This document shows positions 91-5,462 of a stretch of DNA of 5,740 nt, piece after piece. The first letter of the stretch is position 1; each line of letters starts with the position of its first letter. Both the position numbers and the translations under genes were made by a program. The stretch lies in the IMG/VR virus record IMGVR_UViG_2547132274_000013, one strand, 5' to 3'. The notes under the pieces are model-generated. The model was not told the DNA's origin. It did not search any database and saw only the letters and a list, made by a program, of their open reading frames with translations. Source of the DNA: a virus. Taxonomy: Duplodnaviria; Heunggongvirae; Uroviricota; Caudoviricetes.

Positions 91-372
91 ATGATTAAAG
101 ACAGCAAAGCGGAAGAACTGGAGGCTAAAGGGCTGTACCGGAGAGCGGCGGCACGTTGGGCTGATGTTATGTGGCTGGTGAGCACTGACAAGGAGCGCGA
201 ACAGGTGGCAAAGCGTCGCGCGGAATGTATCCGTAAGGCAGCGCGCCAACCAGTCATACCGGATAATTTCGGAATACTGAAAGAGGCCATAAACCGCACA
301 CATACCGGGATGGGCTTACAGAAACCTGGCGGTGAGATGTTCAGGAACTACCCGAAAAAAAGGGATAATTGA
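91..372 (+). CDS. PerC-like small transcriptional regulator (93 aa)
   Basis: ATG at 91 is preceded by GAGG at 81-84 (6-nt spacer); stop TGA at 370-372. The N-terminus MIKDSKAEELEAKGLYRRAAARWADVMW matches my recollection of the PerC/Pch family signature (LE-x-KGL-x-RRAA-x-RW). The ORF track starts at GTG 79, but ATG 91 fits the RBS better. Family assignment is from memory, not a search. Confidence 0.55.
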   Translation: MIKDSKAEELEAKGLYRRAAARWADVMWLVSTDKEREQVAKRRAECIRKAARQPVIPDNFGILKEAINRTHTGMGLQKPGGEMFRNYPKKRDN

Positions 373-417: not shown

Positions 418-666
418 ATGCCAGTGACATTTGAAGAAGTCCAGCAACATAAAAAGCTTCATGATTTTGATGATCTGGAAACCACGACAGTAAAAAAATA
501 TCGCCGGCTGCTTTCTTCCGATGCGTTATTTTTTGTGGATCATCATGATTTTCTGCGTAGCTCACTGACCGGGGAAATTTTCGCAACCAACCGTGAGCAG
601 GTGGAAGCGATGATCGAATATCTGTGGAAAATAAGGCGCAGAATGCGTGATCCCGTGAAACGGTAG
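418..666 (+). CDS. hypothetical protein (82 aa), co-transcribed with the PerC-like gene
   Basis: Strong RBS AGGAGG at 408-413 with ATG at 418; stop TAG at 664-666 lies 4 nt before the terminator hairpin. The ORF track extends to 379, but there is no RBS there. I do not recognise a family. Confidence 0.55.
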   Translation: MPVTFEEVQQHKKLHDFDDLETTTVKKYRRLLSSDALFFVDHHDFLRSSLTGEIFATNREQVEAMIEYLWKIRRRMRDPVKR

Positions 667-669
667 AAT

Positions 670-704
670 AATAATGGCCTGGTATTTTCCAGGCCATTAT
701 TTTT
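670..704. terminator. Bidirectional intrinsic terminator between convergent genes
   Basis: Perfect 13-bp inverted repeat AATAATGGCCTGG (670-682) / CCAGGCCATTATT (689-701) with a 6-nt loop TATTTT, flanked by T-rich sequence on the + strand and A/T-rich sequence on the other. It sits exactly between the stop of 418..666 (+) and the stop of 703..1176 (-). Confidence 0.75.
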
Positions 705-1210: not shown

Positions 1211-1321
1211 ACGGAACAGCTTATTTATTTTTTCAGGTTTTGTAAATTATTTGTTCGTGGTTGTTCCAGGTTGTTCGGTGATTCTGGCTGATGTTTACAT
1301 ACTGATTTTTATGTATATGTT
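1211..1321. promoter_or_regulatory. Divergent control region: three phased 10-bp direct repeats flanked by outward-facing -35-like hexamers
   Basis: TTGTTCGTGG / TTGTTCCAGG / TTGTTCGGTG at 1251-1260, 1261-1270, 1271-1280, with exact 10-bp periodicity. Leftward: -35-like TTTACA (complement of 1241-1246), 17-bp spacer, -10-like TAAGCT (complement of 1218-1223), reading toward the minus-strand gene. Rightward: TTTACA at 1294-1299 and a weak -10 candidate TATGTT at 1316-1321, reading toward the capsid gene. The hexamers are weak; the repeats are unambiguous. Confidence 0.4.
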
Positions 1322-1470
1322 GGCGTGTGGCACTCAGACGTGAGCCGCCACAATGCCGCCTGACCCCCTGCGCGATGCCGGGTTGATCTGCGAGATGCCG
1401 AGAGTGTCGGGCGGCGCTCCCTCCGTGTTGGTTTCACGTCTTTACGTTTAACTGATACGAGAAACCCTTC

Positions 1471-2616
1471 ATGAAGAAATTAATCGAACTCCGCCAGCAA
1501 AAAACCGCCCTGAAAAACCAGATGCGATCCCTGCTGGAAAAAGCCGACAGTGAAAACCGCAGTCTGACCGATGACGAGGGCAAACAGTTTGATGAACTGC
1601 GTGCAAAAGCCGATTCCCTCGACACAGAAATCTCCCGTCTTGAAGCTGTTGCGGATGAAGAACGTAACCAGCCTGGTGTTTCCGTCGAAGAGAAAATCAC
1701 CAAAGATGAACTGCGCTCTTACATTCTGACCGGGGAAACCCGCAACCTGTCCGGCAGTGTCCCGGCTGATGGTGGTTATACGGTTATCCCGGAACTGAAC
1801 AGAGAAATTATGCGTCAGCTTTCTGATGAATCGGTGATGCGTAAAATCTGTACCGTTAAAACCATTCACAGCAATGAATTTAAGCAACTGGTTTCTGCCG
1901 GGGGCGCGGTCGTTGAACACGGTGAAGAAGGCACTACACGTAACCAGACGGCAACACCAAAACTGAATGAAGTCAGTATCCGCCTGTATCCGATCTACGC
2001 TTACCCGAAAACCACTCAGGAAATTATCGATTTTTCCGAAGTCGATATTATGGGCTGGTTATCCTCTGAAATTGGCGACACTTTCGTTGATACCGAAGAA
2101 ACGGATCTGGTTTCCGGTGACGGCGAGAAAAAAGCTAAAGGTTTCCTGGCTTTCCCGCGCACTGCAGATAATGACAAAACCCGTCCTTTCGGTACGCTCC
2201 AGACGAAAAAAGTGACTGGCAGCCTCAGCGCCGACATGCTGATTGACCTGAAATTTACGCTACGCAATAAGTACCGCAAAAAAGCTGTATGGGTGATGAA
2301 CTCAAATACAGCCGCCTCCGCACAAAAACTGAAAAATGCCACTGGTGATTACATCTGGCGCGATCGTTTACAGGCTGGTGATCCTGATTCTCTGCTGGGG
2401 CTTCCGGTTGAATATCTGGAATTTATGCCGGACGGTGTGATTGCAGTAGGTGACTTTAAGCGCGGTTATTTCATCGTTGACCATGAAACCGGTACGCGTA
2501 CCCGTCCGGATTTCAGCGAACCCGGATTCATTAACATCTATACCCAGAAATATCTGGGCGGTGGTGTGGTGGATTCGAACGCCATCAAGATTCTGGAAAT
2601 TCAGGCTGGCAAGTAA
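1471..2616 (+). CDS. Phage major capsid protein, HK97 family, with N-terminal delta (scaffold-like) domain
   Basis: 381-aa ORF. The N-terminal roughly 70-100 aa are a charged, coiled-coil-like segment (MKKLIELRQQKTALKNQMRSLLEKADSENRSLTDDEGKQFDELRAKADSLDTEISRLEAV) typical of the HK97 delta domain, followed by a body typical of HK97-fold capsid proteins. A prohead protease gene lies immediately downstream. Stop TAA at 2614-2616. Confidence 0.88.
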   Translation: MKKLIELRQQKTALKNQMRSLLEKADSENRSLTDDEGKQFDELRAKADSLDTEISRLEAVADEERNQPGVSVEEKITKDELRSYILTGETRNLSGSVPADGGYTVIPELNREIMRQLSDESVMRKICTVKTIHSNEFKQLVSAGGAVVEHGEEGTTRNQTATPKLNEVSIRLYPIYAYPKTTQEIIDFSEVDIMGWLSSEIGDTFVDTEETDLVSGDGEKKAKGFLAFPRTADNDKTRPFGTLQTKKVTGSLSADMLIDLKFTLRNKYRKKAVWVMNSNTAASAQKLKNATGDYIWRDRLQAGDPDSLLGLPVEYLEFMPDGVIAVGDFKRGYFIVDHETGTRTRPDFSEPGFINIYTQKYLGGGVVDSNAIKILEIQAGK

Positions 2617-2665: not shown

Positions 2666-3226
2666 ATGAAAAATACCGATTTTGAAATCCGTACATCTGA
2701 ACTGACCGCCAGCGATAAAAAACTGGTGGGTTATGCCGTTCGCTGGAACAGCCTTTCAGAAATTATCTGGGACGAATTCCGCGAACAGTTCACGCCGGGG
2801 GCTTTTGCTGACTATCTGGCGGCGGGTAATGATGTGCGCTGCCTGTATGAGCATGACTATACCCGACTGCTGGGGCGCACCAAATCCGGAACACTGGTAC
2901 TGACTGAGGACAACACCGGGCTACGTTTTGAACTGACACCGCCTGATACCCAGCTTGGAAAAGATGTGCTTACGCTGGTGGAGCGAGGCGACATTACAGG
3001 AATGAGCTTTGGCTTTCGCGCATTATGCGAAGAATGGAATATCGCGCAAAAACCGTATCTGCGCACTGTTACCGCCGCAGAACTCCGTGAAATCACGATA
3101 ACGTCAATGCCTGCTTATCCCGAATCCGGCGTGGAGATTGCCCACCGTTCGTTGTTTGCACAGCACCCTGAATTACGCCCGGCAGGAAATAATCGTCATC
3201 GCTGGGCTGAACTGGCGGGGTTGTGA
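2666..3226 (+). CDS. Prohead (maturation) protease, HK97 family (S78/U35-type)
   Basis: ATG at 2666 preceded by GGAG at 2655-2658. Motifs typical of HK97 prohead proteases: YEHDYTRLLGRT with a candidate catalytic His, and GDITGMSFGF with a candidate catalytic Ser. Stop TGA at 3224-3226. The ORF track's upstream extension to 2450 overlaps the capsid gene and is not the real start. Confidence 0.85.
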   Translation: MKNTDFEIRTSELTASDKKLVGYAVRWNSLSEIIWDEFREQFTPGAFADYLAAGNDVRCLYEHDYTRLLGRTKSGTLVLTEDNTGLRFELTPPDTQLGKDVLTLVERGDITGMSFGFRALCEEWNIAQKPYLRTVTAAELREITITSMPAYPESGVEIAHRSLFAQHPELRPAGNNRHRWAELAGL

Positions 3227-3227
3227 T

Positions 3228-4442
3228 ATGTGGTGGCCTTTTAGTCGTAAAAAAAGCGATCTGCGTAACCTGTCCATTGATGATTTTCTGGCGCTGTCCG
3301 GCGTACCGAATACCGGATCCGGAGAATATGTTTCTGCCGGGACGGCTGAATCATTGCCTGCTGTGATGAACGCGGTTTCTGTCATCGCTGAGGCGGTGGC
3401 CACGATGCCGTGTTATCTGTATCTGGTACGTAATGACAAGGGCAGGGAGGCGCGGGAATGGCTGGACAGTCATCCGGTAGATATTCTGCTGAATGAGCAG
3501 CCTAATTCGTGCCAGACACCTTACCAGTTTAAACGCACAATGATGCGTCACTGTCTGCTGAACGGTAACGCCTATGCGGTTATTGAGTGGGGGCAGGACG
3601 GGCAGCCAAAATCACTTCATCCTTATGCGCCGGGGTGTGTTGTACCGGAACGCACAGGCGCACACAAATACCGCTATACCATCACCGAACCCTGTACAGG
3701 AACGGTGCGCACGTATTTACAGGAAGAAGTTCTGCATCTCCGCTATGCCTCGGATGATGGCTTTCTGGGGCGCTCCCCCGTCACTATTTGCCGTGAGGCG
3801 CTGGGGCTTGGCCTTGCTCAACAGCGTCACGGAGCCAGCATTATGAAAGATGGCATGATGGCGGCAGGGATTATCACGTCAGGCGAATGGCTGGACGGTG
3901 TGAAAGGTAAACAGGCATTAGACGCCCTGGAACGCTACAAGGGGGCGAAAAATGCCGGAAAAACGCCAATCCTTGAAGGGGGCATGGATTACAAGCAACT
4001 GGGAATGAGTAACCAGGATGCGGAATGGCTGGCCTCCCGTCGCTTCTCCATTGAAGACATCGCCCGGATGTTCAACGTGTCGCCTATTTTTCTGCAGGAA
4101 TACAGCAACAGCACCTACAGCAATTTCAGTGAGGCAAGCCGCGCGTTTCTGACCATGACAATGCGCCCGTGGCTGGCGAACTTCGAACAGCAAATCAAGG
4201 CCGCTTTGCTGGTGGCTTCTCCCGTACCTGGTACCCGTTATCTGGTTGAGTTTGATTCAGCCGATTTATTACGCGCCACCCCTACCGAACGTTACGCCAC
4301 GTATGAGAAAGGGATTAAGAACGGGATCATGAATCCGAACGAAGCCCGCGAACGTGAGGGGATGCCGCCGCGTGAAGGTGGCGACGAATTCAGCCAGGCA
4401 TGGAAGCAGACGGTGGAAATTAAAGGTGAAAAAGATGAGTGA
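3228..4442 (+). CDS. Phage portal protein, HK97 family
   Basis: ATG at 3228, 1 nt after the protease stop (TGATATG). The 404-aa product has portal-like segments (CLLNGNAYAVIEWG; RRFSIEDIARMFNVSPIFLQEYSNSTYSNFSEASRAFLTMTMRPWLANFEQQ). Stop TGA at 4440-4442. The ORF-track start at 3138 overlaps the protease; 3228 is preferred. Confidence 0.85.
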   Translation: MWWPFSRKKSDLRNLSIDDFLALSGVPNTGSGEYVSAGTAESLPAVMNAVSVIAEAVATMPCYLYLVRNDKGREAREWLDSHPVDILLNEQPNSCQTPYQFKRTMMRHCLLNGNAYAVIEWGQDGQPKSLHPYAPGCVVPERTGAHKYRYTITEPCTGTVRTYLQEEVLHLRYASDDGFLGRSPVTICREALGLGLAQQRHGASIMKDGMMAAGIITSGEWLDGVKGKQALDALERYKGAKNAGKTPILEGGMDYKQLGMSNQDAEWLASRRFSIEDIARMFNVSPIFLQEYSNSTYSNFSEASRAFLTMTMRPWLANFEQQIKAALLVASPVPGTRYLVEFDSADLLRATPTERYATYEKGIKNGIMNPNEAREREGMPPREGGDEFSQAWKQTVEIKGEKDE

Positions 4443-4734
4443 AGAAAAAATTACACCTGATGAAGTCAGGGCACATCTTCGCCTTGATGACTTTTCCGGA
4501 GAAGGCGAACTTCTGAAAATGTATACCGATGCGGCGCTGGAAGCCTGCCAGAAGCACATCGGGAAACGTTTTGAAGACGGTCTGGAATTTACCCCGGCAA
4601 TGCGTGTTGGTTGCCTGATGTACATCGCTTTTCTGTATGAGAACAGGGAAGCGGTTTCACCTGTGGAGCAGTCGGAACTGCCTATGGCTATTTCTGCGCT
4701 CTGGTCAGTTTATCGTGATGTGGGGGTGTATTGA
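4435..4734 (+). CDS. Head-tail connector/adaptor protein, gp6-like (Phage_connect_1-type)
   Basis: ATG at 4435 preceded by AGGTGA at 4423-4428; overlaps the portal stop by 8 nt (ATGAGTGA). The 99-aa product MSEEKITPDEVRAHLRLDDFSGEGELL...FLYENREAVSP matches the gp6-like connector pattern (conserved HLR-x-DD near the N-terminus and YENRE). Confidence 0.8.
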   Translation: MSEEKITPDEVRAHLRLDDFSGEGELLKMYTDAALEACQKHIGKRFEDGLEFTPAMRVGCLMYIAFLYENREAVSPVEQSELPMAISALWSVYRDVGVY

Positions 4735-5174
4735 TGCCGTGGCAACCATTAAGGCGTTGTACTGAACCGGGCTGTAATAAGCGTGTGAAGTCCGGCAAGT
4801 GTGAAGAGCACAGGCGGGCTGCATGGCGTGCAGAGGATGCCAGACGGGGACACCGCCGCGCGCGTGGGTATTCCCGACAGTGGGACAAATACCGCGCCCT
4901 GTATCTGAGCAAAAACCCGTTATGCGTGCGTTGTCTGGCTAAAGGTATTTATACGCCAGCTCTTGTGGTGGATCACATCATTCCCATCAATGGCGGCGGT
5001 GATGTTCTCTTCTGGCCTGAGTGGAATCACCAGGCATTGTGCCAGACGTGCCACAACCGTAAGACGACACGGGAAGATCCAGCCACGAAAGCGAACCGTA
5101 AGGCGGGCATGTATCGCGAGCAGGAAGAACGGGCGGCACATCGTAACGACTGGATGTATGGCGATGATGACTGA
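4734..5174 (+). CDS. HNH endonuclease (terminase-associated, phage packaging type)
   Basis: ATG at 4734 overlaps the connector stop (TGATG). The 146-aa product has Cys-rich zinc-binding and HNH motifs (CTEPGCNKRV...KCEEH; VVDHIIPINGGGD; NHQALCQTCHNRKT). It sits immediately upstream of the small terminase, as in HNH-dependent cos-packaging phages. Confidence 0.85.
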   Translation: MPWQPLRRCTEPGCNKRVKSGKCEEHRRAAWRAEDARRGHRRARGYSRQWDKYRALYLSKNPLCVRCLAKGIYTPALVVDHIIPINGGGDVLFWPEWNHQALCQTCHNRKTTREDPATKANRKAGMYREQEERAAHRNDWMYGDDD

Positions 5175-5462
5175 ACAGGAGCAAAACAGGCTGATACGTG
5201 GACTGATAAGGCAGCGTGACACATGGAAGGCACAGGAGACAGGGCACAAAGCCAACAGGACAGGGCGCACAGAACGCACCACAGCGAAGCGATTAACCGA
5301 CCGTGACCGCGAGGTCATGGAATGTTTTCGCAATCGCTGGTGAGGCCGTCAGAGGGGGTGGGGGAGGTTTTCAGGACGAAACCGTCCCTGCCGGACACCG
5401 ACCGCCTCCTCAAATTTTTGTGCACGGGAATTTTTTTGAAAATAATTGGGCGAAAAAAGAAC
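5175..5462. other. Candidate cos/packaging-recognition region between HNH and terS
   Basis: 288-bp non-coding gap in an otherwise overlapping operon. It contains a G-rich tract GGGGGTGGGGGAGG (about 5354-5367), a dyad GGACG-AAAC-CGTCC (5374-5387), a GTGCAC palindrome (5420-5425) and an A/T tract AATTTTTTTGAAAATAATT (5429-5447) just upstream of terS. The position between HNH and terS matches where cos lies in HK97-like phages. Function is inferred, not shown. Confidence 0.3.

Follow-up and report, generated by a model that had tools for sequence, protein, structure and literature searches.

What do three tandem TTGTTC repeats do upstream of the major capsid gene of a genomic island, and which protein reads them? 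The repeats lie in a 5,740-bp stretch of DNA from the Caudoviricetes record IMGVR_UViG_2547132274_000013 (the window, meaning the whole stretch analysed), whose gene order is that of a capsid-forming phage-inducible chromosomal island (cf-PICI). A preliminary description had taken them for an induction switch between two divergent promoters. From comparison with related islands, we propose that the TTGTTC array is a predicted direct-repeat operator of the recombination directionality factor (RDF) type at a late promoter, and a candidate binding box for AlpA of Gram-negative PICIs. AlpA is known as the master switch of these islands; in the literature that we searched, neither an AlpA binding site nor activation of a cf-PICI capsid/packaging operon was described.

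The array consists of the decamers TTGTTCGTGG, TTGTTCCAGG and TTGTTCGGTG (1251–1280, plus strand), whose TTGTTC cores start at 1251, 1261 and 1271. The 10-bp phasing given in the preliminary description proved exact. These are the only three copies of TTGTTC on either strand of the window, and the phased pattern, with up to two mismatches allowed, gave one match in the window and none in 200 shuffles that preserved dinucleotide composition. A fourth unit, TTGTAA, begins at 1240, 11 bp ahead of the first TTGTTC, so that the units are spaced by 11, 10 and 10 bp. The two TTTACA hexamers previously pointed out on either side of the repeats are both present, one at 1294–1299 and the other as its reverse complement at 1241–1246.

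Megablast of positions 1100–1500 against complete E. coli genomes matched 484 genomes, many of them over 1228–1276 alone, and a query with only the conserved block matched 491 of 5,426 E. coli genomes, always between genes. In O157:H7 Sakai the match falls in the prophage-like element Sp7, between a small open reading frame (ORF) downstream of pchE and a capsid gene whose product is 75% identical to the window capsid protein, and no divergent gene is present. In other islands a terminator, or a different leftward gene of 168 aa, stands directly against the block. Because the upstream neighbour varies in this way, the conserved partner of the block is the rightward capsid operon, and the array is, as judged from these comparisons, an element that serves the capsid operon and not a divergent gene pair. 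The divergent control region of the preliminary description was therefore abandoned, as most related islands have a terminator or a different cargo gene at that position.

We aligned 37 distinct upstream regions, recovered through capsid homologues of 68–99% identity (L numbers below are our handles for related loci). The order kept in them was TTGTAAATTAT (unit 0), the three 10-bp units, a 17-nt spacer of unrelated sequence, TTTAC(A/T), 16 nt, TA(T/A)NTT, five variable nucleotides and the invariant 25-nt GTGGCACTCAGACGTGAGCCGCCAC. Across the 22 distinct blocks, hexamer columns held 1.15 bits of information vs 0.47 bits in spacer columns; the middle unit was the least conserved (exact in 7 of the 22, vs 13 and 10 for the outer units), and TTGTAAATTA was the most conserved element. 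Positions 2–6 and 8 of unit 0 were invariant and its remaining positions 86–95% conserved in these blocks, and unit 0 was retained with or without a leftward gene. The distance from the last hexamer to the −35 was 17 nt in all type-A lineages despite unrelated sequence (L268, L269, L271, L279, L285, L286) and 19 nt in Sakai-type islands. TTTAC(A/T) was conserved in position in most diverged islands (exceptions L265, L267 and L273), and TA(T/A)NTT occupied the −10 position in nearly all aligned sequences, the next five nucleotides being variable.

A consensus promoter scan independently picked TTTACA-16-TATGTT (9/12), a weak sigma-70 promoter. Its −35 and −10 keep their distance from the array and depart far enough from the consensus that an activator would be needed, as expected of an activator-dependent sigma-70 promoter. 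Since invariance starts 6 nt after the −10, the transcript would begin near 1327–1329, as judged from the leader only; with +1 taken as about 1328, the hexamer centres lie at about −75, −65 and −55 and the TTGTAA unit at about −86. We thus predict a four-unit operator in helical phase, with the TTGTTC repeats as its core, spanning about −86 to −52 at the capsid-operon promoter. The preliminary description was right in kind in placing a phased regulatory array (predicted binding) by the capsid promoter, and its TTTACA at 1294–1299 corresponds to the conserved, predicted −35. Its second hexamer did not survive the comparison: the complement at 1241–1246 is part of conserved unit 0 and is kept without a leftward gene, and a conserved leftward promoter on it was rejected, as no −10 partner is conserved across islands and most lack a leftward gene. 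A lambda CII-type promoter (TTGC-N6-TTGC) was also considered and rejected. In that type the −35 region falls between the repeats, which lie about 13 nt ahead of the −10; in the present promoter 17 nt separate the last repeat from the −35, and no −10 is conserved at the distance typical of CII.

Conservation of such a block need not mean that it is bound. It sits at a mosaic junction, with upstream modules and cargo exchanged, and could be a 'linker' kept by inter-module recombination, or a set of repeats produced by chance or slippage. We regard an array without binding function as extremely improbable, because flanks and spacers are scrambled in diverged islands but the cores of the hexamers, their 10-bp register and the 17 nt up to the −35 are kept, shuffles never reproduce the array, and the unit recurs at other functional sites.

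These other sites, the att arms and the neighbourhood of alpA, lie outside the window and were read from related islands. A scan for phased arrays (three hexamers, each 10 bp after the last, agreeing with TTGTTC in at least 14 of their 18 positions) gave 8–10 matches per island of 11–15 kb (Sakai Sp7, LS45 and EcCICFT073) vs about 0.3–0.4 per island in shuffles. Matches peaked sharply at the 10-bp step, other steps within 7–13 giving 0–3, and with at least three head-to-tail direct repeats one helical turn apart the array has the make-up of an RDF operator. The bare pattern TTGTTC-N4-TTGTTC-N4-TTGTTC (18 bases) was too loose for database searches: chance matches in unrelated taxa were among the matches listed for bacterial genomes and IMG/VR, and cf-PICI contigs were few among the IMG/VR matches listed. 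The preliminary description had suggested looking for further arrays in the flanking genome and in helper phages. In 73.6 kb of E. coli chromosome and prophage DNA around the islands the scan found a single match, none reaching 15/18, and the block had no counterpart in 50,697 phage records. The recurrences were found in the att arms and near alpA of related islands.

The extra arrays occupied two sites. The first was the att arms, both of which had an array some 13 nt away from paired 12-mers (Sakai Sp7, LS45, EcCICFT073, L339, L350 and L357; coordinates for three loci are in Table 1), so that RDF-type repeats are found in the arms of related islands as well. The other lay just past the int stop codon, facing alpA; in L372 the int–alpA array is at 10185–10250. 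The int–alpA gap of Sakai Sp7 reads, on the minus strand, TTGTTC GTGG TTGTTC CACA TTGTTG CTCA TTGCTG CACG TTGTAT, and that of EcCICFT073 has six 10-bp-phased TTGTTC-like units; the scan found no such array ahead of the late genes of EcCICFT073. Arm and capsid arrays drifted together by lineage, spacer letters included (Sakai arm TTGTTCCACGTTGTTTCA, capsid TTGTTCCACGTTGTTCAC; L350 arm TTGTTCATTGCCGTTCATAG, capsid TCGTTCATTGCTGTTTGAAT). In the LS45 island, which has AGAAATACCCGTAT as att core, alpA is annotated as frameshifted (L309 5477–5700), the arrays are kept and the middle unit of the capsid array is degenerate (TCTTTC); this island may be in decay. Upstream of int in the window's island type (L002 988–1026) is TTGTTCGTCG-N20-TTCTGGCTG, nearly equal in spacing to TTGTTCGTGG-N21-TTCTGGCTG at the capsid promoter (window 1251–1290); the likeness may be a remnant of a shared site or a duplication. 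Replication-origin iterons were rejected as an identity for the repeats, the block being constant across islands with DUF927, primase-family and RepA-helicase replicases and the stretch behind pri being free of arrays in the island scan.

The att arms of PICIs are built to one plan, in which a TTGTTY array is followed, after about 13 nt, by two adjacent 12-mers that differ by integrase type (GGTGTAGTTAAT, TGTGTGGTCAGT, TGTGTATTGCAC, TGTGCAGTCAGT), which mirrors the annotated arm repeats of P4 attP. Arrays in both arms bring the integrase itself into question, its arm-binding domain being a conceivable reader of the TTGTTC units, which at the promoter would then be arm-type sites put to a second use. 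An Arm-DNA-bind_3 domain is present in every one of the integrases, and lambda has three tandem arm-type sites, P'1–P'3. However, equivalent 12-mer pairs are annotated as attP arm repeats in the P4 record, which identifies the 12-mers as the integrase arm-type sites; each arm thus already has a pair that varies with the integrase, and the TTGTTC unit, constant across integrase types, must serve another protein. In addition, L002-type arms lack strong arrays although their capsid array is perfect. We therefore consider binding by the integrase very unlikely.

A unit that recurs at the integration sites and at the regulator gene suggests that AlpA may turn capsid production on directly. We judge it somewhat probable that the array units are candidate binding sites for Xis/Vis-like AlpA that couple induction to capsid expression. 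AlpA as the binder, and activation rather than repression, are what we infer from co-location and covariation. A PF05930 AlpA was encoded in all array-bearing islands in which the regulatory region was covered and was absent where the array was absent. Capsid promoters without the array (L334/L340 and L329) came with a gene for an HTH_17 regulator and no PF05930 AlpA, and the most degenerate array (L331) was paired with the most diverged AlpA. PICI AlpA proteins are 62–92 aa long, and their family is labelled 'excisionase and transcriptional regulator' in PHROGs; CFT073 AlpA is 92% identical to that of Sakai and 47% identical to P4 Vis (Vis vs Sakai/CFT073, 45–47%). AlpA alone activates its own promoter PalpA in EcCICFT073 and triggers excision and replication without a helper (PMC6092414), and cf-PICI induction needs alpA (10.1101/2022.09.08.507074). 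RDFs bind tandem repeats one turn apart, cooperatively and head to tail; the middle site of lambda Xis has the fewest specific contacts, and Apl, Cox and Vis also regulate promoters (PMC7498355, PMC2603039).

In the mechanism that we propose, a helper phage would switch on alpA, and AlpA (PF05930, a winged-helix protein like Xis and P4 Vis) would load cooperatively, head to tail, on the array. The bound protein would then bend the DNA, contact RNA polymerase or do both, activating the capsid-protease-portal-connector-HNH-terminase operon. In related islands AlpA would use the one decamer at the att arms for excision and upstream of alpA for autoactivation. The part of the preliminary description that tied the array to induction is plausible; its setting between divergent promoters is not supported. 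In the islands without the array, an HTH_17 regulator and an ORF6N/ANT antirepressor-like gene replace AlpA (L334 794–985 and 5490–5570, L340, L329), and their capsid promoters have the palindromes CTATG..CATAG and GTTACCTTGGTAAC in place of TTGTTC; CATAG/CTATG also occurs upstream of the HTH_17 gene.

Several points weigh against AlpA as the reader of the array. The putative assignment consists of co-location and covariation, and the covariation with HTH_17 amounts to two or three lineages, possibly from other host genera. In the window's island type the only strong array is that of the capsid promoter, and what precedes int is a weak remnant. This type encodes two AlpA paralogs that are 48–60% identical to CFT073/Sakai AlpA; at that identity a shared specificity is an assumption, and the paralogs may have divided the work between them. 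Arrays near alpA point the opposite way, and that of CFT073 lies about 190 bp from the sole promoter-like match. The exact DNA of the published PalpA reporter is not stated in the main text (PMC6092414), and Pint, which abuts an arm array, was reported to be unaffected by AlpA in EcCICFT073. Finally, capsids have been reported to form at some level without helper induction, so that the promoter is not strictly dependent on induced AlpA.

The same report of capsids without induction would suit a host DNA-binding protein, through which the capsid promoter would answer to host physiology: an OmpR/PhoB-family response regulator (TorR-like) on the array, or Fis or IHF on the invariant TTGTAAATTAT. 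The block is near-identical where integrase, AlpA alleles, replicase and accessory genes differ, as expected of a constant host factor, and the tor boxes of E. coli torC have a TGTTC core and include two in tandem at 10 bp. We nonetheless think a host factor unlikely. The arrays are confined to islands, with no match of at least 15/18 in the 73.6 kb of surrounding chromosome and prophage; those in the att arms stand next to the arm sites of the integrase, where an RDF encoded by the element would typically bind; the arm and capsid arrays of an island lineage drift together; and arrays are missing where an HTH_17 protein replaces AlpA. The ATAT half of the tor box is also absent from the array. 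Membership of the TorR regulon was rejected, as the decamer CTGTTCATAT is matched in its TGTTC core only and positions 7–10 are G/C-rich vs ATAT in torC. Presumed resemblances to ArcA, PhoP, Fis and IHF sites were given no weight.

A protein of the helper phage, either an excisionase-type RDF or a late activator, might instead bind the array as P2 Cox does at the P4 late promoter PLL. The closest precedent is a set of tandem P4 decamers of TTAAAG type (CACTTAAAGT, CATTTAAAGC and CACTTAAAGC) upstream of vis/PLL, which we take to be P2 Cox sites. Crosstalk between PICIs and helper excisionases has been reported (PMC11773190). However, the block searched against 50,697 phage records returned only chance AT-rich matches in Prevotella megaphages; it is thus not a copy of a helper site and is not shared with helper late promoters. 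Recurrence of the unit in the att arms of the islands themselves and ahead of alpA suggests that the binder is encoded by the island, AlpA excises EcCICFT073 by itself with no helper, and the covariation is with the regulator type of the island. A helper-phage factor, proposed in the preliminary description, is thus conceivable as a protein, although distinctly unlikely, while the idea of a site held in common with helper late promoters was dropped.

The other binders considered are encoded in the window itself, namely the PerC-like protein, the 82-aa ORF product and the 157-aa protein. Proteins of the PerC family bind DNA, with a preference for AT-rich sequence, and act as anti-silencers (PMC4764244), and in many islands perC stands shortly before the array. 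Perfect arrays were, however, found in many islands without a PerC homologue in the 3 kb upstream and in the complete LS45 island, which is PerC-free throughout; arrays persist in L003–L005 without the 82-aa ORF; and the gene for the 157-aa protein is present in a minority of array-bearing islands and replaced elsewhere. None of the three would explain the att-arm arrays. We thus consider a window-encoded binder highly improbable, which counts against the PerC-like and 157-aa candidates of the preliminary description. PerC as an obligatory binder was excluded by the co-occurrence data, and the array does not go together with a PerC-family gene as it would at a PerC/Pch-dependent promoter; a paper on Pch chromatin immunoprecipitation gave no motif and mentioned neither Sp7 nor PchE.

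Downstream of the promoter, the RNA of positions 1327–1480 folded into three hairpins (−56.1 kcal/mol, z = −2.87), and the 25 nt of the 5' hairpin (1327–1351) were invariant in the 37 distinct sequences. Ten diverged leaders had unchanged outer hairpins and compensatory changes in the middle hairpin. An invariant hairpin at about 1430–1466 ends 4–5 nt before the ATG and covers the weak ribosome-binding region. These features suggest that the capsid-operon leader is a second control layer. AGACGTGA (1336–1343) is complementary to TCACGTCT (1434–1441), so that an alternative pairing is possible, and a direct repeat (CTGCGCGATGCCG at 1368–1380 and CTGCGAGATGCCG at 1388–1400, 20 nt apart) lies within the middle hairpin. 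No Rfam family matched anywhere in the window, leader included. The Sakai-type leader (L001, about 4105–4266) differs in sequence and has a similar 5' hairpin, GTGGTGCC..GGGGCCAC. In it, GCGTCCTGG is a possible pairing partner of CCAGGACGC and also forms GTCCTGG..CCAGGAC, after which T8 runs directly up to the capsid ATG; this hairpin and T8 look like an attenuator or terminator. The array was rejected as a loading site for antiterminators of the Q or Pseudomonas aeruginosa (Pae) AlpA kind, which needs an element between the −35 and −10 and a −10-like pause, as it lies upstream of the −35.

It is possible, and we suggest it only tentatively, that one TTGTTC-N4 code read by AlpA-family proteins coordinates excision at both att arms, autoactivation of alpA and capsid transcription, that it works in series with the attenuator-like leader as a two-key switch, and that it may even act in both directions, inducing the 157-aa or 168-aa cargo too. 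A candidate AlpA box in about 9% of complete E. coli genomes makes the AlpA site and capsid activation directly testable. If true, the reading predicts an AlpA regulon of att arms, alpA and capsid operon and helps to explain basal vs induced production of tail-less capsids. The array also gives a sequence mark by which islands can be annotated and which can be used in engineering delivery vehicles based on PICIs.

Table 1. Features of the window and, where a locus is named, of related islands.
Feature	Position	Strand	Basis or remark
PerC-family protein gene	91–372		Pfam
82-aa ORF	418–666		
Terminator-like hairpin TGGCCTGG..CCAGGCCA, then T-run	675–704	+	Read from sequence; closes the PerC/small-ORF transcription unit
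157-aa cargo gene, function not assigned	703–1176	−	
Array unit 0, TTGTAAATTAT	1240–1250	+	Most conserved part of the block
Three 10-bp units, TTGTTCGTGG, TTGTTCCAGG, TTGTTCGGTG	1251–1280	+	Candidate head-to-tail AlpA sites (predicted)
Spacer, last hexamer to −35	1277–1293	+	17 nt; length conserved, sequence not
−35 hexamer TTTACA, capsid-operon promoter	1294–1299	+	Promoter scan
−10 hexamer TATGTT	1316–1321	+	Promoter scan
Structured 5' leader	1327–1470	+	Fold and comparison of diverged leaders
HK97-type major capsid protein gene, first in operon	1471–2616	+	Pfam
Prohead protease	2666–3226	+	Pfam
Portal	3228–4442	+	Pfam
Connector	4435–4734	+	Pfam
HNH	4734–5174	+	Pfam
P27-type small terminase, TerS	5463 onward	+	Pfam
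att-arm arrays	L309 3100 and 18241; L311 3381–3450 and 18619–18675; L372 8841–8910 and 20060–20125		
Split terL halves	L002 1–909 and 15873–16616; L310 1577–2605 and 18110–18853		

A cf-PICI is an island of 10–15 kb with int, alpA and primase but without tail or lysis genes, in which a single operon encodes HK97-type capsid, protease, portal, connector, HNH and TerS, the layout being that described in 10.1101/2022.09.08.507074. The window follows this layout, as seen from Pfam matches, its ORFs and the annotation of its 98%-identical relatives and of Sakai Sp7 (EcCIEDL933 type). These relatives, the islands L002, L315 and L316, are 98.1–98.2% identical to the window over 5,715 nt. Their further genes include those for an integrase, two AlpA-family proteins, a primase and a large terminase; tail and lysis genes are absent. 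Islands of this type sit inside the large-terminase gene of a resident HK97-like prophage, with the split terL halves flanking the island, so that the packaging gene of the prophage is inactivated when the island integrates. In the gap that separates terS from the small ORF after HNH (window 5344–5462), a G-rich GGGGGTGGGGGAGG is followed by A/T-rich sequence, at the usual position of cos in HNH-dependent cos phages.

Left of the array, the PerC gene is missing from many islands and from the complete LS45 island and thus behaves as accessory cargo, not as a core regulator of the capsid operon. The 157-aa gene, too, is judged from its distribution to be cargo, inserted between the upstream terminator and the block and outside the conserved control region: it is missing from most block-bearing islands, and in cargo-free ones (L001, L003–L005, L247 and others) a hairpin analogous to that terminator directly abuts the block. 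The 157-aa protein had no match in Pfam, PHROGs, PADLOC or NCBIfam, and the 168-aa protein had none in Pfam, PADLOC or NCBIfam. The two genes (the latter at L006 2941–3447, minus strand) are unrelated and fill one slot, both leftward and back to back with the array. The slot looks like a cargo hotspot, with expression that might be tied to the array. For the 157-aa gene, the minus strand of the window can be read as TTTACA-17-TAAGCT.

Among known systems, the P. aeruginosa AlpA and the phage Q antiterminators share with the present locus only the name and a terminator-like leader downstream. Pae AlpA acts on a single GGGACG element between the −35 and −10, loads onto paused RNA polymerase and, with helix-turn-helix contact residues at 128–142, is much larger than the 62–92 aa AlpA of PICIs; it was rejected as a model. 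The TorR boxes of torCAD are closer, being TGTTC-core decamers upstream of a promoter with the first two in tandem at 10 bp, but their consensus CTGTTCATAT has an ATAT half and boxes 3 and 4 lie about two turns apart, whereas the PICI arrays are island-specific. P4 Vis and CP4-57 AlpA belong to PF05930, one family with PICI AlpA. Vis binds attP, regulates int and acts at late promoters, and P4 attP has paired 12-mer arm repeats, beside which, unlike in the PICIs, there is only a weak TTGTT-type run (13/18). At PalpA of EcCICFT073, an int–alpA gap with six phased TTGTTC-like units is joined to an AlpA that activates PalpA and drives excision; the array there is in the opposite orientation and farther from the likely promoter, and there is none before the late genes.

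Direct repeats at 10–11 bp are also found with phage 186 Apl and lambda Xis (X1-X1.5-X2), which bind cooperatively, head to tail, and bend DNA, Apl acting both at att and at promoters. Of the Xis sites the middle one is least specific, just as the middle unit of the present array is the most degenerate. These families are only distantly related to PF05930, and Apl and Cox mostly repress promoters that their sites overlap, whereas the array described here lies upstream of the −35, in an activator-like position. The P2 Cox boxes at P4 PLL offer at least three tandem decamers one turn apart by the promoter of a satellite, bound by a small excisionase-type protein that also acts at att. They differ in their unit (TTAAAG-type vs TTGTTC here), in their binder, which is helper-encoded in P4 and which we favour as island-encoded here, and in the genes under control, which in the present island are a full capsid/packaging operon.

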